A program made the position numbers and the translations under genes. A stretch of 64,000 nucleotides of DNA from Acidobacteriota bacterium (GTDB lineage Bacteria > Acidobacteriota > UBA6911 > RPQK01 > JAJDTT01), in contig CBDCJH010000002.1 of the NCBI GenBank assembly GCA_965217775.1, positions 4,576,001 through 4,640,000 of the forward strand, given 5' to 3'. The notes under the pieces were generated by a model that saw only the letters and a list, made by a program, of their open reading frames with translations, was not told the origin of the DNA and did not search any database. Shown here piece by piece: positions 1-33,197 of the stretch. How positions within the stretch are numbered: position 1 is the stretch's first letter; each line of letters begins with the position of its first letter.

Positions 1-933
1 AGTGAAGTTCTCCAGAGTGGAGAGAGCCACATTGTGGGCGCGTCCGATGCCGGTCTCCAACATCCCTCCGCACCAGACCGGAACGCCCCGGGCCTGGCAG
101 GCGTCGTGGACCGCCTTGGCCTCGGTGTGTCCTCCCACCCGTCCCATCTTGATGTTGACGATGCGGCAGGCTCCCACGGCGATGGCATGGTCCGCGTCCC
201 GGCGGTGGCGAATCGATTCGTCCAGGCAGATGGGGGTCCGGAGCCGGGCCTGGAGCTCGACGTGCCGGAAGACGTCGTCGTACTCCAGGGGCTGCTCCAT
301 CATCAGCAGGTCGAACCGGTCCAGTTCGGCCAGGTGGTCGAAGTCGGCCAAACCGTAGGCGGAGTTGGCGTCCACCATGAGTGAGATCCGGGGAAAGCGC
401 TTGCGGACGGCGGCCACGATGTCGAGGTCCCAACCCGGCTTGATCTTGATCTTGATCCGCTGGTATCCGGCCTCCAGCTCTTCCTCGATCTTGCGCAGGA
501 GAATGTCGGGGTGATCCTGGATGCCGATGGAGACCCCGCACGGGATCCGGCGATGGCGTCCCCCCAAAAGCTCCCACAGGGGCACTCCCGCCGCCTTGGC
601 CCGGAGATCCCAGAGCGCGGCCTCCAGACCGGCCTTGGCCATGGGATGACCCCGGACCGACCTGACCCAGCCCGGAAACTCGTCCGCCCGGCTGAAACGG
701 ACACCCAGCACGCGAGGGACCAGGAACCGGCTCAGGACCGGCCAGACGGTGTCTACCGTCTCATAACTGAAACCGGGTGCATCGTCGGCGACACACTCGC
801 CCCAGCCGGAAAGCCCGTCCGCCCGGACCTCCAACAACAGGACCCGGCGGCCATGGACCCGGCCGAAGCTGGTCTCGAAGAAATGGATCAGAGGAAGGCT
901 GATTTCGCGAACGACAACCCGCTCCAGCTTCAC
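1..933 (-). CDS. menC: o-succinylbenzoate synthase / N-acylamino acid racemase (enolase superfamily), 3' end runs off the window
   Basis: Manual translation from GTG at 933: VKLERVVVREISLPLIHFFETSFG...PVWCGGMLETGIGRAHNVALSTLENFT; overlaps the upstream stop (GTGA); absent from the ORF track. Confidence 0.85.
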   Translation of the reverse strand, partial: MKLERVVVREISLPLIHFFETSFGRVHGRRVLLLEVRADGLSGWGECVADDAPGFSYETVDTVWPVLSRFLVPRVLGVRFSRADEFPGWVRSVRGHPMAKAGLEAALWDLRAKAAGVPLWELLGGRHRRIPCGVSIGIQDHPDILLRKIEEELEAGYQRIKIKIKPGWDLDIVAAVRKRFPRISLMVDANSAYGLADFDHLAELDRFDLLMMEQPLEYDDVFRHVELQARLRTPICLDESIRHRRDADHAIAVGACRIVNIKMGRVGGHTEAKAVHDACQARGVPVWCGGMLETGIGRAHNVALSTLENFT

Positions 934-2549
934 TCTTTCCTTTTTCCTTTTTCCTTTTTCCTCGTTCCCCTCTCACCCCATCCCCCTCCTCCGGGGGTCT
1001 CGATCCGGACGGCCTGCCCGGCCGTGAGCTGGAGAGACACCTTGCCGGCGAGGTTCCTGCGACGGCCCCGGTCCACCAGGTAATTCCGGCCCTTCTTCCC
1101 GGTCTCTCCTCCGTTGAGTCCGTAGGGAGGGTTGACCCGCCGCTCCGACAGGATGGTCGTGGTGCAATCGGTCAAGGCCTCCAGGGTCCGGACGATTCCA
1201 TCCCCGCCTCGATATCTGCCCTTGGCGCCAGACCCGATTCTCAATCGGTACTCCCGAACCCGAAGCGGGAAATCGTACTCCAGGGCTTCGATGGGCGTGT
1301 TCAGGGAGTTGGTCATATGCGTGTGCACGCCGCTGGTACCGGGGCCGGACGGGCTGGCCCCCATGCCACCCCCGATGGTCTCGTAGTAGGAAAAGGGCTT
1401 GCCCGTGTCGGGGTGGACCCCGCCGATGGAGATGTTGTTCATGGTGCCGCTGCTGGCGGCCGGGATCCGGTCGGGCAGGGCTTGGGCCAGGGCCCGGAGC
1501 AGAACGTCCACGATCCGCTGGGAGGTCTCCACGTTGCCGCCGGCCGTCGCCGCCGGAAACCGGGCATCCACCACGCTTCCCTGCGGCGTGGAGACGCGGA
1601 CCGAGCGCATCAGCCCGGCGCTGGCGGGAGCATAGTCGGGAGCCAGGCAGCGGAGGACGTAATAGACGGCGGACCGGGTGACGGCGCGGACGGCGTTGAG
1701 GCAACCGGGTATCTGGGGTGCCGACCCCGCAAAATCGATCTTCATGGAATTCCTGGTGACCCGGATGCTGACACGAATCGGGACCGGCTCCGATCCCTTC
1801 CCGGGGTCGGCCTCATCCAACAGGTCCTCGGCCGTGTAGCGTCCGTCCGGGATCCGGCGAATGGTCTGCCGCATGATCTTCGCCGAATAGTCCTGCAGAG
1901 CCCGGCAGTACCTTTCCATCTCGGCTCTCCCGTTCTTTGCGACCAGCGCCCGCAGCCGCTTGTCGCCGACTCTCAGCGACCCCACCTGCGCGGCCAGATC
2001 CCCTTCCCGCTCCAGGGGGGTGCGGACGTTGCTGAGGAGGAGGCGGAGCAGGTCGACGTTCAATCGGCCCCGCCGGTAGAGCTTGGACGGCGGAACCCGG
2101 ATACCCTCTTGGAAGACGTCCCGGCTCAAGGGCATGGATCCGGGGGACATTCCCCCCACGTCCGCGTGATGGGCGCGACCGGCCACATAGAAGACGGGGC
2201 GGGCGAACCTGTCCGAAGGTTCGAACACGGGCGCCACCATGGTGAGATCGGGCAGGTGCGTTCCCCCGGCGAAGGGGTCGTTGAGGATCACCACGTCGCC
2301 CGGCTGCAGGGGCTCATGGGCGAGAGCCGCCTGGACCGACATGGGCATGGAGCCCAGATGGACCGGCATGTGGTCCCCCATGGCCACGAGCTGCGCCTTC
2401 GAGTCGAAGAGCGCACAGGAATAGTCTCGACGTTCCCGGACGTTGGAAGAATAGGCCGTGCGGTGGAGCACCGTCCCCATCTCCTCGGGGACCGAGGTCA
2501 GAAGATGCCGGTAGACCTCGAGTCTAACGGGATGGATACGTTTTGCCAC
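930..2549 (-). CDS. Hydantoinase B / 5-oxoprolinase family protein
   Basis: RTAYSSNVRERRDYSCALFD, HMPVHLGSM, NDPFAGGTHLPD, TPGGGGWG motifs; the ORF-track extension to 2768 is REP sequence, so GTG 2549 chosen as start. Confidence 0.9.
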   Translation of the reverse strand: MAKRIHPVRLEVYRHLLTSVPEEMGTVLHRTAYSSNVRERRDYSCALFDSKAQLVAMGDHMPVHLGSMPMSVQAALAHEPLQPGDVVILNDPFAGGTHLPDLTMVAPVFEPSDRFARPVFYVAGRAHHADVGGMSPGSMPLSRDVFQEGIRVPPSKLYRRGRLNVDLLRLLLSNVRTPLEREGDLAAQVGSLRVGDKRLRALVAKNGRAEMERYCRALQDYSAKIMRQTIRRIPDGRYTAEDLLDEADPGKGSEPVPIRVSIRVTRNSMKIDFAGSAPQIPGCLNAVRAVTRSAVYYVLRCLAPDYAPASAGLMRSVRVSTPQGSVVDARFPAATAGGNVETSQRIVDVLLRALAQALPDRIPAASSGTMNNISIGGVHPDTGKPFSYYETIGGGMGASPSGPGTSGVHTHMTNSLNTPIEALEYDFPLRVREYRLRIGSGAKGRYRGGDGIVRTLEALTDCTTTILSERRVNPPYGLNGGETGKKGRNYLVDRGRRRNLAGKVSLQLTAGQAVRIETPGGGGWGERGTRKKEKGKRKE

Positions 2550-13701: not shown

Positions 13702-13780
13702 GTGGGCGACAAGAAAGTCGCCCCTCCAGTGGGCGACAGGAAAGTCGCCTCTCCAATGGGGGACAGGGATGTCCCCTCTT
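13702..13780. repeat. Three tandem REP-like hairpins downstream of rpoC
   Basis: GGGCGACAAGAAAGTCGCCCCTCC, GGGCGACAGGAAAGTCGCCTCTCC, GGGGGACAGGGATGTCCCCTC. Confidence 0.8.
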
Positions 13781-25877: not shown

Positions 25878-25955
25878 TGGCAGGCCAGGAGGGAATCGAA
25901 CCCCCAACATCCGGTTTTGGAGACCGGCGCTCTACCAACTTTGAGCTACTGGCCT
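25878..25955 (-). tRNA. tRNA-Trp(CCA)
   Basis: Cloverleaf, anticodon CCA, TTCGA T-loop, encoded 3' CCA. Confidence 0.95.
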
Positions 25956-25967
25956 ATCGAAAATCAT

Positions 25968-26117
25968 TTATCGCGCCTCGCGGTGGGCCACGTGGCGACG
26001 ACACCAACTGCAATATTTTCTCAGCTCGAGCCGCCCGCGCTGAGTCTTCTTGTTCTTGGTCGTATTATAGTTTTTCCGGTTGCACGCGGTGCATCGGAGG
26101 ATGATGATATCGCGCAT
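25968..26117 (-). CDS. rpmG: 50S ribosomal protein L33 (Zn-binding type)
   Basis: Manual translation [49 protein letters not shown]. Confidence 0.95.
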
Positions 26118-26121
26118 CGGC

Positions 26122-27309
<1,188 letters not shown>

Positions 27310-27347
27310 GATGGAACTCCTGAATTAGCCTTGACTGTCAGTTGGAA

Positions 27348-27419
<72 letters not shown>

Positions 27420-27459
27420 ACATACCCGTCTCGCCGGCTGTTGTCCACGAAGCCACTGT

Positions 27460-27535
27460 TGGAGCGGGAGACGGGACTCGAACCCGCGACCGATAGCTTG
27501 GAAGGCTATTACTCTACCAACTGAGTTACTCCCGC
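27460..27535 (-). tRNA. tRNA-Gly(TCC)
   Basis: GCGGGAG acceptor stem, anticodon arm TAGCCTTCCAAGCTA, encoded CCA. Confidence 0.95.
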
Positions 27536-27599
27536 CCTCCACCGTATGCGAAAAACCCGAGTCCGTTCTTTCTGGATCCATGGAGGGCGGCTACTGGTC

Positions 27600-27684
27600 T
27601 GGAGGGGGCAGGATTCGAACCTGCGTAGCCCCGAAGGGCGACGGGTTTACAGCCCGTTGCCTTTGTCCACTCGACCACCCCTCC
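27600..27684 (-). tRNA. tRNA-Tyr(GTA)
   Basis: Anticodon arm GGGCTGTAAACCC, long variable arm. Confidence 0.93.
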
Positions 27685-27893
27685 TCATTGCGATCGGGGA
27701 ATTCCTGATCCCCATCCGCCCCGACGTGTCGCTCCTGCCAGTGCACCCTACCTTCCTGCAAAGCAGCCTCATTGCCAGGGAGGATACGGGAAGTGCCAAA
27801 TTATACGCACTTCGGGTGATGGATTCAAACAGAAAATGGGACGACCTCGAGCCGCCGGTCGCGCCACCCGGGCTTGCGTTTATGGAAAGGGAG

Positions 27894-27965
27894 AGCTGGC
27901 GAAGGGAATCGAACCCCCAACCTACTGATTACAAATCAGTTGCTCTACCCTTGAGCTACGCCAGC
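27894..27965 (-). tRNA. tRNA-Thr(TGT)
   Basis: Anticodon arm CTGATTTGTAATCAG; canonical Thr-Tyr-Gly-Thr-tuf order. Confidence 0.94.
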
Positions 27966-28075: not shown

Positions 28076-29323
28076 TTAAAGTGTAGAGGGGGGACTGTCG
28101 CCCCCTCTAGACCCCCCTTTTCGGCGGCTGGAAACCGCCGCTCCTTTCGGCGGCTGGAAACCGCTGCTCCTTTCGGCGGCTGGAAACCGCCGCTCCATGT
28201 CCCCGAAGGCCAGGCGGTAGGCGGAGATTCGGAAGCGGAAGAGGTGGCGGCAGAATTCCAGGTCGCCGATCTTGCGGGTGGAACGGATCCGGCGGCGTCT
28301 GCGTAGCATCGGGCCCGCCCCGGCCAGGGCGTCCCGATAGGCCCGGACCTGCACCCGGAGCAGGAGCCACAGGGAGCCTTCCCGGCGGAAGTTGCCGGCG
28401 GGCCCCCGGCGGAGCAGCGCTGCACAGAGGTTCCAGGCCAAGCGATAGATGGAGAAGATGGGGTTCAGGAGAAGGAGGGGGAGGGGGAAGTTCTTGAGCG
28501 CCAGCCAGAGCCGGTTCCGCTCCACCCAGTAGATCTTCCGGGGAGAGTAGGGGCCCAGGGTCGAGGAGTGATGGTGGTGCACCACCGCTCCGGGCACATA
28601 GAGGCAACGCCAACCCAGCCAGCGGGCCCGGAGCCCCAGGTCGGCGTCCTCCGCGTAGGCGAAGAAGCTCTCGTCGAAGCCGCCGACCTCTTCCAGAACC
28701 TGCTTGCGGTACAGAGCGGCACAGCCGTCGGCCGCGAGGACTTCTTGCGTCGCGTCGTACTGACCCCGGTCGCGTTCGCCGGTTCCCCGGCCCCGGTTCT
28801 GCCCGTCCGGAAAAATCACGTGCCCCGCCTTGTCGATGACGTCGGACCCGTGGAAGAGGATCTTGGAGGCCCACATGCCCACCTCCGGCGAGGCGCCGAT
28901 CCCGGACACCAGTCGTTCGATCCATTCCGGAGACGCCACGGCGTCGTTGTTCAGCAGAGCCACCAGATCGCCCCGGGCCTGGCGGACTCCCAGGTTGACG
29001 GCGGCGGCGAAACCTCGATTCTCAGGGAGGGACAGAAGACGCACCCCATGGCCGGCAAAGGAGGTGACGACGTCCGTGCTGTGGTCCCGGGATCCGTTGT
29101 CGACCACCAGGATCTCAAGCCGGGGCCAAGTCTGGTCCAGGAGCGATTGCAAGCAGGCACGGAGCAGCGCGGCGCGGCCGTAATTCACCACGACGACGGA
29201 AACAAGTTTCCTATTGCGGTCTGGAGAATCGGCGACAAGAAAGTCGCCGCAATCCGGCGGCAAGAAAGGCGCCGCTCCCAATCGGCGGCAAGAAAGCCGC
29301 CGCTCCTGCCGGCCAACTGTCAT
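28076..29323 (-). CDS. GT2 glycosyltransferase (rhamnosyltransferase-like); both termini read through REP repeats
   Basis: VSVVVVNYG, VVDNGS, LLNNDA, GGFDESFFAYAEDADLG; true start uncertain. Confidence 0.85.
   Translation of the reverse strand: MTVGRQERRLSCRRLGAAPFLPPDCGDFLVADSPDRNRKLVSVVVVNYGRAALLRACLQSLLDQTWPRLEILVVDNGSRDHSTDVVTSFAGHGVRLLSLPENRGFAAAVNLGVRQARGDLVALLNNDAVASPEWIERLVSGIGASPEVGMWASKILFHGSDVIDKAGHVIFPDGQNRGRGTGERDRGQYDATQEVLAADGCAALYRKQVLEEVGGFDESFFAYAEDADLGLRARWLGWRCLYVPGAVVHHHHSSTLGPYSPRKIYWVERNRLWLALKNFPLPLLLLNPIFSIYRLAWNLCAALLRRGPAGNFRREGSLWLLLRVQVRAYRDALAGAGPMLRRRRRIRSTRKIGDLEFCRHLFRFRISAYRLAFGDMERRFPAAERSSGFQPPKGAAVSSRRKGGSRGGDSPPSTL
28121..28197. repeat. Three tandem REP hairpins inside the GT2 3' end
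   Basis: TCGGCGGCTGGAAACCGCYGCTCC x3. Confidence 0.85.
29228..29307. repeat. REP cluster
   Basis: GGCGACAAGAAAGTCGCC, GGCGGCAAGAAAGGCGCC, GGCGGCAAGAAAGCCGCCGCTCCT. Confidence 0.85.
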
Positions 29324-29344
29324 GGACCCGGAATGCCAGGGGGC

Positions 29345-29668
29345 TCAGACAACCTTGCGTCCTTTTCCGACGACGTACTCCCGGAGCATGTCCACGTTGC
29401 CTTCGACCCGGGAGATGCATTCCGTAAGTGAGACTTCGACCCGGGAGATGCGGTCTGTAAGTGAGACTTCGACCCGGGAGATGCGGTCACGGATTTCGCC
29501 GCGTTCACGGGTGGCATCGTGAAGATCCGAGCGGATCACCGCCAGTTGCTCGTTGAGATCCCGGCGGTTGGTCCGGGACTGAGTGAGGATAAGGCCCCCC
29601 AGGCTGACGGTGGCGGTGAGGATGAGGCCACCGAGTGAAACGATGATGATGGTGAGTTCGGACGTCAT
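29345..29668 (-). CDS. Small N-terminal-TM coiled-coil protein with 11-aa repeats (copy A)
   Basis: Hydrophobic N-terminus, RISRVEVSLT(D/E) repeats on a 33-bp period; paralog at 31778. Confidence 0.75.
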   Translation of the reverse strand: MTSELTIIIVSLGGLILTATVSLGGLILTQSRTNRRDLNEQLAVIRSDLHDATRERGEIRDRISRVEVSLTDRISRVEVSLTECISRVEGNVDMLREYVVGKGRKVV

Positions 29669-29812
29669 TGGAACGCTCCCTGCAAGTTTACTCCGTCGGA
29701 GCCGGATTGGACAATTCCGTTACCGGTCAAGGCAATCCGCGTGCCACGGGGAGTTCGGCGGCTGGACCAGGATCAACATTTCTACTGCGGTCCGGAGAAT
29801 CGGCGGCAAGAA

Positions 29813-31729
29813 GTCACGGTAGGAACGGCAGTTTCCTGCCGCCCCCCGCACAGATCCGGACGTGCCCGTTAAGGCATCCGGCTCCTACCTTGGGTGTGGA
29901 CGGCCAGCGGAACCGCTGCCCCGGCCACGGGTGACGGATCTTCACGGATGGCCAGAGCAATTCCGTCATCCGTCGCAACCGTCCCCAGCTGAAGCGGTCG
30001 CGTTGGGACCGGCGGCGCAAGGCTCGCAGCCACCGCCGTTGCAGCAGATAGCAGAAACCTCGCAGCCAGCGCGTACTCCCCGGAACCGCAAAATAGTTCA
30101 GCCAGCCGTTCAGGACCCGGCTCAACCATTTCCCGACCTCCCAGTGATCCGCGTGCCGTTGTCTCCACAGCCTCTCCCCCACCCGTTGCAGGGTCCGGTT
30201 CATCCGTTTCGCGCTTGGCTTCCGCCCCAGCCGGAAGCGTCCCTTCCGGGTCTTCGCACAGTAGTGCGTGAACCCCAGAAAGTCGAACGTCTCCGGTTTC
30301 CGCTCCCCGCGTCGTCGCCGATCCGCTGCCGCAAATCGTCCGAACTCCACCAGTCGCGTCTTTTCCGGGTGCAGTTCCAGCCCGAACTCGGCGCACCGTT
30401 CCCCCAGGTCTCGGAGAAACCGTTTCGCGTCCGCCCGTCTCTGGAATCCGGCCACGAAGTCGTCCGCATATCGCACCAGGATCGCTTCGCCTTTCGGGAC
30501 TCGTGGGCGCCACGTCCGATGGAACCATTGGTCCAGCACGTAGTGCAGGTACACGTTGGCCATGACCGGCGAGACGTTGGCGCCCTGAGGCGTCCCTCTC
30601 CCCGTGTCCGACCAGGTCCCTTCTTCCATCACGCCGGCGTTCAGCCACTTGCGCAGCAGCCGCAGCACCCGCCGGTCTCCGATCCGCCGTTCCACGAACT
30701 GCATCAGGCAGTCCCGGTCGATCGCATCAAAGAACGTCCGAATGTCCGCGTCCACGATCCCATTGACTTTCCGCCGTTCGATCCCGTAGGCCAGTGCATC
30801 CAGCGCGTCATGCGCCTTCCGTCCGGGCCGGAACCCGTAGCTGAGCCCGAGAAACTCCGCCTCGTAAATCGGCGTCAGGAGCTCGTCCACGACTGCCTTC
30901 TGGAGGATCTTGTCCTCCAGCGCGGCCACGCCGAGCGGTCGTGTCCTTCCATCCGGCTTGGGGATGTTCACCCGCCGGACGGGAGGCGCTCGGTACGCGC
31001 CCCGGTGCACGCGGCGATGCAGGTCCAGCAGTCGCTCTTCCAGCTTCGCCCCGTACTCCTCCCACCGTACCCCGTCGATTCCCGGGGCAGCGTCCTTTCT
31101 CAGTCCGAGATAGGCGCGGCGCAGGGCCTCCACAGTGATATGGTGCAGCAGCGCGGTCAGTCGCTCCTTGGGGTTTCTCGCGATCGCTCGCCGTATCCGG
31201 TCCACCGCTTGGGACACGCTCCCCCGACTCTGCGTCCGGCGCGTGCTTTGGCTCACCGAATTCCCCTTGGTTCCATCCCTTCGCTCCACCGGCTCCGCCG
31301 AGGGTCGCCCCTCTTTGTTCGCCCGCTTCATCGCTACTATGGATGAATCCGATTGCTTCGTTCCGTCCATCATGAGTTTCGGGTTACTCCTTTCTCATGC
31401 GACCCCGGGGCGACCCCCCGGCGTGAAATGAAGCCCTCCCAGGTCCCGGAACAAGATTTGCGTACGTGCCTGGGTTCTTTGACACCGCGGAGCCCGGCCG
31501 TCCCTCACCTGGGCGGTCCAGCCGGTGTTGCCTTCGACCGCGACTACAGCCTCGGCACTTCCGATCATGGAGCTTTCGATGCTCAATAGCCTGCCCATAC
31601 GCACCGCTACCGACGCTTCGCCGACACCCTCACGGGTGCCAACGCACGGCTCGCGGAGAAACGTGGATGGTTAGTCCTTCGTTTCGGCGGACTTCCACCG
31701 CCTATCTTGTGCCAGTTAGCCTGGCGCAC
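29813..31729 (-). mobile_element. Group II intron (class E-like), 1917 nt
   Basis: 5' GTGCG at 31729; 3' domain V/VI ...CACGTCCGGATCTGTGCGGGGGG...CCTACCGTGAC at 29813; removing it restores a REP hairpin. Confidence 0.93.
29814..31373 (-). CDS. ltrA: Group II intron reverse transcriptase/maturase, no endonuclease domain
   Basis: IPKPDGRTRPLG, SYGFRPGR, GTPQG, RYADDF, FDFLGFTH; true start may be slightly downstream. Confidence 0.95.
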   Translation of the reverse strand: MMDGTKQSDSSIVAMKRANKEGRPSAEPVERRDGTKGNSVSQSTRRTQSRGSVSQAVDRIRRAIARNPKERLTALLHHITVEALRRAYLGLRKDAAPGIDGVRWEEYGAKLEERLLDLHRRVHRGAYRAPPVRRVNIPKPDGRTRPLGVAALEDKILQKAVVDELLTPIYEAEFLGLSYGFRPGRKAHDALDALAYGIERRKVNGIVDADIRTFFDAIDRDCLMQFVERRIGDRRVLRLLRKWLNAGVMEEGTWSDTGRGTPQGANVSPVMANVYLHYVLDQWFHRTWRPRVPKGEAILVRYADDFVAGFQRRADAKRFLRDLGERCAEFGLELHPEKTRLVEFGRFAAADRRRRGERKPETFDFLGFTHYCAKTRKGRFRLGRKPSAKRMNRTLQRVGERLWRQRHADHWEVGKWLSRVLNGWLNYFAVPGSTRWLRGFCYLLQRRWLRALRRRSQRDRFSWGRLRRMTELLWPSVKIRHPWPGQRFRWPSTPKVGAGCLNGHVRICAGGGRKLPFLP

Positions 31730-31777
31730 AGCCGCCACTCCTGTCGGCCGACTGTCATCGACCCGGAGCTAGGAGGC

Positions 31778-32134
31778 TCAGACAACCTTGCGTCCTTTTC
31801 CCACGAAGTACTCGCGGAGCACGTCCACGTTGCCCTCGACCCGAGCGATGCGTTCGGTAAGCGATGCTTCGACCTTGGCGATGCGTTCGGTAAGCGACAA
31901 TTCGACCTGGGCAATACGTTCCGTAAGCGAGACTTCGACCTGCGCGATGCGGTCACGGTTTTCGCGGATTTCTCGGGCGGCATCACTCAGCCGTGAGTCG
32001 ATGCCCGCGAGTCTTTCGTCGAGTTCCCGGCGGCTGGCCCGGAATTGGGTGAGGATGAGGCCGCCCAGGGTGAGGGTGGCGGTGAGGATGAGGCCACCGA
32101 GTGAAACGATGATGATGGTGAGTTCGGACATCAT
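31778..32134 (-). CDS. Small N-terminal-TM coiled-coil protein with 11-aa repeats (copy B)
   Basis: Paralog of 29345..29668 with one extra 11-aa repeat and a near-identical upstream region. Confidence 0.75.
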   Translation of the reverse strand: MMSELTIIIVSLGGLILTATLTLGGLILTQFRASRRELDERLAGIDSRLSDAAREIRENRDRIAQVEVSLTERIAQVELSLTERIAKVEASLTERIARVEGNVDVLREYFVGKGRKVV

Positions 32135-32222
32135 TGGAACACTCCCTGCAAGTTTACTCCGTCGGAGCCGGATTGGACAATTCCGTTACCGGTCAAGGCA
32201 ATCCGCGTGCCAGGGGGGAGTT

Positions 32223-33197
32223 CTAATCCGCAGTCGCGAAGACGGTGACCGTGGCGCCGCGTCCCAGGGCGGCCTCCGCGGCGGCAAGGGGTTGGGCCAG
32301 GAGCAACAGTTCGAAATAGACGGCCTCCTTCAGCGAGAGCCCCAAGGACCGCGCCCGCTTCGTCTCCCGCAGCAGGCGCACCTTCTGGGACATGGGATCG
32401 AGGGCCGGAAAGAGGCTGGAGACCAGGGCGGCGGCGTTGTCGCGCAGGGAGAAGTGGCGCACCCGGCGAACCCGGAAGCCGGCGCGGCCGAGGAGCTCGA
32501 CCAGTGCCCGCGCCGTGAAGTTGTGGATATGGCGGGGACAGTCGAGACCGTACCACCGGGAACCCAGGAGCGCCGCCTGGATGCTGTGGCTGTTGGGAAC
32601 CTGGATCACCAGACCGCCGTCGCCGGCCAGGAGCCGGCGGATCCGCCGCAGGTAGTGAAGGGGCCGGGGCAGGTGCTCCAGGACGTGGAAGAGCGTCAGC
32701 ACGTGGAAGGTGGCGCCGCTTCGGATCAGGTCCCGTTCGTCTCCCACCACTACCCGGCCCGGCAGGATCTTCTCGGCCGCCTCACCCGCTTCCGGGGAAG
32801 CTTCCAGTCCCTGCACCCGGAACCCGGCCTCCCGGGCCAGCTTCAGGAAGGTGCCGCTGCCGCAGCCGATGTCCAGGAGGCGGCGGCCGTTCCCCGGCGG
32901 GGCCACCGAGAGGACGAAGCGCAACTGGTCGTGCCGGAGGACCCACTCCCGGTAAAGACCCTCCACGCCCCGGGGGTCTCCTTCCGGGTCCCACCAGTAG
33001 CCGGGCGGGTAGAATTCGGGGATCCGGTCCGCAACCTCAGACACCCGCTGGAAGCGGAGGCCGCAGCCGGGACAGTGGTAGAGGGGAAACGCCTCGCGGG
33101 TGACCTGGAAGAACCGGTCCTCCAGGCGGCGCCAGAATCGGCAACGGGGGTGGCGGCAGACGGGACAGGGCAGAGAGGCGTCCGGATCCACGCTCAT
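32223..33197 (-). CDS. Class I SAM-dependent methyltransferase with N-terminal Cys motifs
   Basis: CPVC...CPGC, LLDIGCGSG, LFHVLEHL, IQVPN. Confidence 0.88.
   Translation of the reverse strand: MSVDPDASLPCPVCRHPRCRFWRRLEDRFFQVTREAFPLYHCPGCGLRFQRVSEVADRIPEFYPPGYWWDPEGDPRGVEGLYREWVLRHDQLRFVLSVAPPGNGRRLLDIGCGSGTFLKLAREAGFRVQGLEASPEAGEAAEKILPGRVVVGDERDLIRSGATFHVLTLFHVLEHLPRPLHYLRRIRRLLAGDGGLVIQVPNSHSIQAALLGSRWYGLDCPRHIHNFTARALVELLGRAGFRVRRVRHFSLRDNAAALVSSLFPALDPMSQKVRLLRETKRARSLGLSLKEAVYFELLLLAQPLAAAEAALGRGATVTVFATAD

Follow-up and report, generated by a model that had tools for sequence, protein, structure and literature searches.

A 2015 review describes three strategies by which bacterial group II introns reach their targets, namely the use of unique homing sites, of terminators and of attC sites (PMC4424553). 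The group II intron considered here lies on the minus strand at 29813..31729 of a 64,000-nucleotide stretch of DNA (the window; contig CBDCJH010000002.1, positions 4,576,001 to 4,640,000, assembly GCA_965217775.1) from an Acidobacteriota bacterium whose genome is called G000 below. It would add a fourth practical strategy, in which an abundant intergenic repeat is used as the homing site by means of the ordinary homing machinery. In particular, the element is quite probably an active-looking, endonuclease-less, IIB-like intron of the class E kind, whose natural homing site is an abundant hairpin repeat resembling the repetitive extragenic palindromes (REPs). Because ordinary homing machinery is used, the element does not amount to a new kind; its novelty lies in the abundant-repeat target, in the switches in the exon-binding sites (EBSs) that follow the repeat variants, and in the accompanying mini-introns.

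Among the described systems, RmInt1 of Sinorhizobium meliloti (class D, IIB3; target ISRm2011-2) is likewise endonuclease-less, is directed to multi-copy mobile DNA and shows a bias towards the lagging-strand template (PMC5894124). It differs in that its target lies inside an insertion sequence (IS) gene, which is inactivated, whereas the target here is a 25-nt intergenic hairpin; the two proteins are 34% identical. Introns of the IIC type (class C) resemble the present one in using G+C-rich stem-loops outside genes, in having many sites per genome and in lacking an endonuclease. As characterized in PMC4424553 and PMC3753933, however, they have a short EBS1 and no EBS2, recognise the stem-loop by its structure and insert beyond it, whereas here the 5' arm itself is the intron-binding site (IBS) 1 and the insertion point lies where the arm meets the loop or one base further in. 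Class E introns such as S.me.I4 likewise have no endonuclease domain, a small IIB-like RNA and EBS1, EBS2 and EBS3. Kl.pn.I5 (= Se.ma.I1), found on thousands of Klebsiella plasmids, has a protein 53% identical to the one described here and an RNA that also matches the Rfam family RF02005; together with seven more distant relatives it uses ordinary low-copy homing sites, whereas here the repeat is present in about 100-300 copies per genome and EBS1 has diversified with it. The use of REPs as safe intergenic sites is also known from ISPpu9, ISPpu10, IS1397 and ISPa11, which are mobile elements too, but DNA transposons. Tobes & Pareja (2006) tabulated IS families that are 100% REP-associated, and the only group II intron in that table, from Pseudomonas putida KT2440, has 2 of its 9 copies associated with REPs, with no pairing rule given there (PMC1525189). 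Among open-access papers nothing closer to a REP-homing group II intron than this 2/9 entry was found, which is not proof of absence in print. Mohr et al. reportedly described in 2010 group II introns of Thermosynechococcus elongatus without an open reading frame (ORF) that are mobilised in trans. Near-identical, protein-less derivatives likewise stand beside full-length copies in the present case; here, the mini-introns ride REP variants.

The features of the locus, in window coordinates, are as follows.

29813..31729, minus strand: complete group II intron of 1917 nt, with the 5' end GTGCGCC at 31729 and the 3' end CTACCGTGAC at 29813.
31473..31695, minus strand: domain I core, Rfam RF02005 (group-II-D1D4-6), 164.9 bits, E 9.6e-48, model positions 1-225 of 225.
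29813..29886, minus strand: domains V and VI, Rfam RF00029, 37.5 bits, model positions 1-77 of 77.
29814..31373, minus strand: ORF for the intron-encoded protein of 519 aa, a reverse transcriptase (RT) with YADD plus a maturase region; Pfam RVT_1, 5.3e-34.
31540..31545, minus strand: EBS1 AGUCGC, intron nt 185-190, in the terminal loop of the domain Id hairpin of the RF02005 alignment; by covariation.
31569..31573, minus strand: EBS2 GCUCC (nt 157-161 of the intron), within an internal loop that precedes the EBS1 hairpin on its 5' side; by covariation.
31480..31480, minus strand: EBS3 A, intron nt 250 (GGUGUC-A); by complementarity to the first base of the 3' exon.
31730..31735, minus strand: IBS1 GCGGCT, the final six bases of the 5' exon, comprising most of the 5' arm of the hairpin and the first loop base; from the exon sequence.
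31737..31741, minus strand: IBS2 GGAGT, the GGAG tag ahead of the REP stem; from the exon sequence.
29802..29812, minus strand: start of the 3' exon, TTCTT-GCCGCC, with IBS3 (T at 29812), the remaining REP loop and the 3' arm; from the exon sequence.
29231..29301, minus strand: three free tandem REP hairpins of the same family, used for comparison as empty sites, 3' of a paralogous gene at 29345..29668(-) and about 500 bases from the intron.

The identity of the element is confirmed: it is a group II intron with an RT/maturase ORF that lacks an endonuclease domain, as it has the GTGCG 5' end, the RF02005, RF00029 and RVT_1 matches, and YADD. The RF02005 match lies far above the gathering score of 49, and the RF00029 match, slightly below its gathering score of 40 and taken at a laxer threshold, terminates exactly on the final intron base (29813), reading CUACCGUGAC. 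In the 519-aa protein no endonuclease domain was found, Pfam giving RVT_1 only, and the Pfam maturase model GIIM had no score at E <= 0.01. The frame of this protein extends across domains V and VI (29814..29886, minus strand) and stops 1 nt ahead of the 3' splice site, whereas in Kl.pn.I5 the annotated gene ends within the domain V loop. Excision of 29813..31729 joins tcggcggcaagaa to agccgccactcct, giving the hairpin of 29283..29301 except for a single substitution outside the stem; the junction of GGAGTGGCGGCT with TTCTTGCCGCCGATT reads as the hairpin GGCGGC-TTTCTT-GCCGCC, so that the intron splits a REP-like hairpin between GGCGGCT and TTCTTGCCGCC.

The pairing of the intron with its exons was evaluated in an alignment of 18 introns, including eight more distant introns of the same RNA type. 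Across the 11 proposed pairs, 88.2% of the alignment cells are paired as compared with 32-45% when the 3' partner columns are slid by 1-3 positions, and the observed value was reached by none of 500 shuffles. In the EBS1-IBS1 helix compensatory changes are found in all six pairs, with 95.4% of cells paired. EBS2 GCUCC is complementary to GGAGY at positions -12 to -8, and double compensatory changes are present in two lineages, one in the relative G004 (CAUGC facing GCATG) and one carrying the EBS1 GGGUGC (CCUAC facing GTAGG); the outermost EBS2 pair is weak, being unpaired in 10 of 18 cells. Nucleotide 250 complements the +1 base in 11 of the 12 introns compared (8 of 12 for the runner-up columns), and this pair would correspond to the EBS3-IBS3 pair of IIB-type introns. 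Taken together, the intron RNA could read 12 bases, namely GGAGN, GCGRCT and T. An earlier note on this DNA, made from its letters alone, had placed an intron at exactly these coordinates in the loop of a REP, with excision restoring the hairpin seen at 29283, and all of its coordinates proved correct. Its EBS1, proposed at the usual position and pairing with a 5' exon that ends in GCGGCT, falls in a terminal loop of the RF02005 consensus and covaries with the last six exon bases, and EBS2 and EBS3, which it left to the folding of domain I, have now been located.

The repeat targeted by the intron was then characterized. Within the window, GGCGRCTTTCTTGYCGCC with at most one mismatch gives 9 matches as compared with 0.00 expected from 100 shuffles, and the variant GGCGACTTTCTTGTCGCC, whose arm the earlier note had matched to EBS1, occurs at 13705, 24894 and 29231 (minus strand) as claimed. 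On the chromosome contig that carries the window (C2, 6.29 Mb), there are 106 exact, intron-free copies of GGCGRC-TTTCTT-GYCGCC, and the repeat family tops the list of perfect hairpins with a 7-bp stem. GGAG stands at the offset seen at the intron site ahead of 72 of these 106 free hairpins. The repeat has the traits of REPs, being a short imperfect palindrome of high copy number with tandem clusters in the window; its intergenic position was judged by eye in the window. REPs linked to REP-associated tyrosine transposases (RAYTs) carry a GTAG or CGTC tag according to PMC3733652; here, the main variant is tagged GGAG and one variant (GTAGGGGCACCC...) is tagged GTAG. A RAYT-associated status of the repeat was considered and rejected as no Y1-transposase gene is flanked by it, and "REP" is used throughout as a descriptive label.

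BLAST of the intron against its own genome revealed 10 full-length copies, 98.6-100% identical and with the same ends. In addition, there are one internally deleted copy, four ORF-less copies and one 67-nt 5' fragment, for a total of 16 elements. The frame of 519 codons is open, with YADD, in all 10 full copies. The four ORF-less copies (642-755 nt), hereafter mini-introns, retain intron positions 1-551 and 1822-1917, the protein gene being gone; two of them, 1.2 kb apart, have a common 3' flank. Nine of the ten full copies are inserted inside hairpins of the type GGCGRCT/TTCTTGYCGCC (the slash marks the insertion point here and below) or close variants. The tenth, at C2:3931636, stands between ggagatGCGGCT and gaccgaat, where there is no 3' arm, yet IBS1 and IBS2 match. 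The deleted copy, at C2:3646257..3645111, has the first 14 nt and then position 771 onward, a deletion unlike that of the mini-introns, and is still in a REP. At C2:5165874, C2:4407265 and C2:4406059 the 5' arm GGCGAC, a perfect match to EBS1, faces the 3' arm GCCGCC. Such mismatched arms are found in 3 of 13 occupied sites (two independent events) as compared with 0 of 106 free repeats, and may possibly reflect decay after the hairpin was split, a preference for weakened stems, or conversion of the exon flanks.

The intron family also occurs in 7 of 8 further genomes of the genus; in the sister genus, 6 genomes gave no match. For the relatives, the lists of introns are lower bounds, and the figures that draw on them hold among the matches listed. 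Among 42 distinct sites from six genomes of the genus, 36 qualify as hairpin loops by the criterion that at least 5 of 6 arm bases are complementary across the insertion (last exon bases against a 3'-exon segment 3-9 nt away), and 27 of them are perfect; in a control in which the same 5' exons were combined with random 3' flanks, 9.65% passed. Three loci with one boundary missing (L015, L035, L040) were excluded from the 42. Exon recognition differs among lineages, the EBSs and the exon bases that they face being as follows.

EBS1 AGUCGC facing exon GCGRCT: main lineage.
EBS1 AGUCCC facing exon GGGACT: mini-introns of G005 and one copy in G002.
EBS1 AACCCC facing exon GGGGTT: full copy in G005.
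EBS1 AAUCGC facing exon GCGATT: G005.
EBS1 GGGUGC with EBS2 CCUAC facing exon GTAGG-G-GCACCC: mini-introns in G000, G004, G006 and G007.
EBS1 GGAUGC with EBS2 CAUGC facing exon GCATG-G-GCATCT: three copies in G004.

The EBS1 variants track the repeat variants across the genus. In G005, GGAGGGGGGACTT is present 296 times, as compared with 6 in G000, 16 in G002, 14 in G004 and 13 in G006, and GGAGNGGCGRCTT is present 59 times, as compared with 103 in G000, 69 in G002, 75 in G004 and 184 in G006. Five ORF-less copies of G005 with EBS1 AGUCCC, at different sites, are 99.1-100% mutually identical; a one-base change of EBS1 coincides in this genome with a burst on the locally dominant repeat variant. 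In G006 there are at least seven mini-introns, 89-100% mutually identical (95.5-100% without the one copy of the GGGUGC lineage). In this genome, a single contig that is 97% complete, the search found no protein exceeding 36% identity to that of the intron, setting aside the 52-aa N-terminal remnants inside the mini-introns; these mini-introns are either fossils or users of a distant protein. The three G004 copies (L004, L013, L022) are full-length, with both EBS1 and EBS2 changed, and sit after the palindrome AGATGC-ATGG-GCATCT. Their flanks are identical over 45 nt upstream and near-identical over 35 nt downstream, and the trio is probably located inside another repeated element. A separate lineage of mini-introns (C2:3224157 in G000, L007 in G007, L045 in G006, L047 in G004) is found at the GTAG-tagged hairpin GTAGGGGCACCC-CTTGT-GGGTGCCC; the G000 and G007 copies begin with GAGCG and not GUGCG, and the GGCACCC-CTTGT hairpin has about 20 copies on the chromosome contig.

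Nine less closely related introns with this type of RNA, whose proteins are 41-58% identical to the one here, are found at ordinary, non-repeat sites with a matching EBS1; therefore, the use of REPs is a specialisation of the family of this genus. The earlier note had proposed such a specialisation, and it is supported: the other copies do lie in REPs for the most part, most sites being REP hairpins. Two qualifications come from the non-hairpin site at C2:3931636 and from the G004 trio in a different repeated sequence. On a Sinorhizobium medicae plasmid, locus L084 (687..1003) shows a domain V/VI match (687..759) and, starting within 7 nt of its end, an RF02005 match (766..1003), which suggests two introns that are nested or abutting.

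It is conceivable, if rather doubtful, that the intron and the repeat co-evolve. In such a case, a new REP variant would expand, single-base switches of EBS1 would then open hundreds of sites, the repeat would escape by changes of its 5' arm, and the hairpin on the lagging-strand template or a loosened stem would help to make a site usable. If so, the occupied sites with mismatched arms would represent preferred, weakened hairpins or exon flanks rewritten in retrohoming.

A further regularity is found in the orientation of the copies with respect to replication. In G000 the cumulative GC skew bottoms out near 4.95 Mb and peaks near 1.65 Mb, with dnaA at 5.011 Mb. The sense strand is the leading strand for 10 of 10 full copies (binomial p = 0.002) and 15 of 16 elements, as compared with an unbiased 56:50 for the free REPs. 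In the relatives, where the origin was taken as dnaA and the terminus assumed half a genome length (L/2) away, the same holds, among the elements listed, for 10/10 in G002, 4/4 in G004, 9/10 in G005 and 8/8 in G006. In total, 46 of 48 are so oriented in five genomes, which are kin and, for the relatives, rest on assumed termini. RmInt1, also endonuclease-less, shows a lagging-strand-template bias and uses lagging-strand primers (PMC5894124), and a comparable priming may operate here: the leading-strand sense bias is proposed to arise because an endonuclease-less intron is primed from the nascent lagging strand.

Collectively, these data suggest the following mechanism. The intron RNA and the RT/maturase would recognise the DNA strand 5'-GGAGN-G-GCGRCT/T by means of three pairings: EBS2 GCUCC with the GGAGN tag, EBS1 AGUCGC with the 5' arm and the first loop T, and EBS3 A250 with the next loop T. 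Reverse splicing would follow at the recognised site and, in the absence of an endonuclease, cDNA synthesis would be primed by the nascent lagging strand at the replication fork. The derivatives of about 640-755 nt without the protein gene would use the same sites and borrow the protein in trans, and changes of one or two bases in EBS1, and in two lineages in EBS2 too, would have shifted sub-lineages to other repeat variants. The intron could multiply in this way without hitting genes because the repeat offers about 100 intergenic copies of the same 12-13 bases. Judged from the sequences, base pairing of EBS2, EBS1 and EBS3 fully accounts for target specificity, and the intron may be active at present.

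Several observations weigh against this account. IBS1, when in single-stranded DNA, is locked in a G+C stem of 6-7 bp, which should hinder pairing. Hairpin context is confounded with IBS3, as the +1 T is present in 103 of 110 free hairpin sites as compared with 9 of 71 non-hairpin rows (about 14 of these 71 being occupied). Two elements, one out of 16 in G000 and another out of 10 in G005, are oppositely oriented. As to the REP label, none of the three matches to the Y1 transposase (PF01797) in the genome has the repeat within 1.5 kb.

The hairpin itself might contribute to recognition. In such a mixed scheme pairing would select the site, and insertion would be made more efficient by the hairpin folding on the single-stranded lagging-strand template or by the protein reading the 3' arm, somewhat as a stem-loop serves IIC introns. 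In G000, 13 of 116 strict GGAGNNGCGRCT sites are occupied in hairpin context as compared with 1 of 58 outside it (Fisher p = 0.037), in keeping with such a contribution. However, the +1 T is found mostly in the hairpin sites, and therefore sequence alone predicts about the observed share of occupancy. The position of the other lineages is also suggestive, as the GGGUGC/CCUAC lineage is again inserted at the junction of the 5' arm and the loop of another hairpin (GGGCACCC/CTTGT GGGTGCCC), and the G004 lineage and Kl.pn.I5 stand directly after short palindromes (AGATGC-ATGG-GCATCT/ and ACTGT...ACAGT/). Nevertheless, the repeat variants are probably of common ancestry, so that an equal position is not independent evidence; in seven distant introns of this RNA type whose boundaries could be read there is no layout of 5' arm and loop, Kl.pn.I5 is not at an arm-loop junction either, and the full copy at C2:3931636 sits in a site without a 3' arm. 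Such a shared role of pairing and structure is thus unlikely, although it fares best among the alternatives to recognition by pairing.

Much less probable is recognition as in class C introns, in which the intron would read the stem-loop as a structure and have no more than a short EBS1, the way IIC introns act on terminators and attC sites. The target is indeed a G+C-rich hairpin 3' of a gene. Nonetheless, EBS1 has 6 bp and EBS2 5 bp and both covary with the exon, and the covariation of EBS2 already contradicts this model, since IIC introns are described as having no EBS2 (PMC3753933). Moreover, insertion occurs within the loop and not beyond the stem, the protein shares 55% identity with a putative class E remnant, and the RNA matches RF02005, as that of Kl.pn.I5 does. 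Least likely of all is a passive spread without retrohoming, in which larger segments were duplicated or the repeat moved with the intron already inside it, as two mini-introns 1.2 kb apart with the same 3' flank and three G004 copies with at least 45 identical nt upstream and 35 near-identical nt downstream could suggest, but the flanks of the other copies are unrelated beyond the repeat of about 25 nt on both sides, the boundaries are base-exact, the orientation follows replication when that of the free repeats does not, and the EBS variants match their own sites. Homing by the three pairings into the REP-like repeat thus remains the preferred reading.

The class of the intron was assessed mainly from its protein, which is 55% identical over 309 aa to a disrupted RT on the S. 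meliloti GR4 plasmid pRmeGR4b and 34% identical to the protein of the class D intron RmInt1, which that plasmid also carries. The annotation of pRmeGR4b lists one 419-aa ltrA (the 34% match) and one 318-aa "reverse transcriptase domain-containing protein" (the 55% match). This plasmid carries the disrupted class E intron S.me.I4 (PMC5894124), which we infer to be the 318-aa remnant, the only disrupted intron-type RT annotated there. These pairwise identities support a class E-like placement, which hinges on the remnant being S.me.I4. A second Sinorhizobium intron, with 42% identity, also matches RF02005, and therefore a match to RF02005 is not by itself sufficient to assign the class. In PMC3552965, whose Tables S1 and S2 have one Acidobacteria entry each, classes D and E are sister clades. 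Without the ORF the ribozyme has about 640 nt, as judged from the mini-introns, with EBS1 and EBS2 in domain Id; IIE/IIF ribozymes are given as 450-700 nt in PMC3753933. The same source places alpha-prime of class E on the DId3 terminal loop and describes a 5-nt domain V loop. In the RF02005 consensus, a hairpin with a 10-nt terminal loop comes after the EBS1 hairpin, and a search by eye gave no convincing alpha partner for this loop; the domain V loop admits two readings, UUAAC with 5 nt and UAAC with 4 nt. With respect to the earlier note, its description of the element as endonuclease-less and class E-like, and as finding its target by EBS-IBS pairing unlike class C introns, agrees with the RVT_1-only protein, with the identities of 55% and 34%, and with the covarying EBS2, the 6-bp EBS1 and the insertion inside the loop.

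The family offers a record, made in nature and drawn from several genomes, of EBS1/EBS2 retargeting (six lineages), of the spread of protein-less mini-introns and of a very clean lagging-strand-template bias (46/48). It opens to plasmid assays how targets are found and opened without an endonuclease, whether a hairpin helps or hinders reverse splicing, and how fast specificity shifts. In annotations of Acidobacteriota genomes, such repeats and the 640-nt mini-introns will go unrecognised or be called wrongly.

From 24 sequencing runs that a search returned, assembled contigs of four were compared with window positions 29250..32250. The intron is covered by contigs of the RNA-labelled runs X5, X8 and X9 (one study) and of X1 (kind not recorded), which show neither transcription nor its absence. 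The unique flanks, 29351..29754 and 31775 onward, are uncovered in X5, X8 and X9, and no contig joins 29812 to 31730, the contigs being uninformative on splicing. One contig of run X8 (depth 5.3) joins 31730 to 29840, that is, the 3' end of a variant intron to the intron 5' end with one extra base between; this joint may stem from a circularised intron or from tandem head-to-tail DNA copies in a relative.

Two paralogous small genes, 29345..29668(-) and 31778..32134(-), encode 107 and 118 aa, respectively, and each is followed by REP hairpins. Both products have a hydrophobic N-terminal segment and heptad repeats resembling ISRVEVSLTERI, with weak, sub-threshold Pfam matches. Five tRNA genes are clustered at 25881..27965 (-).

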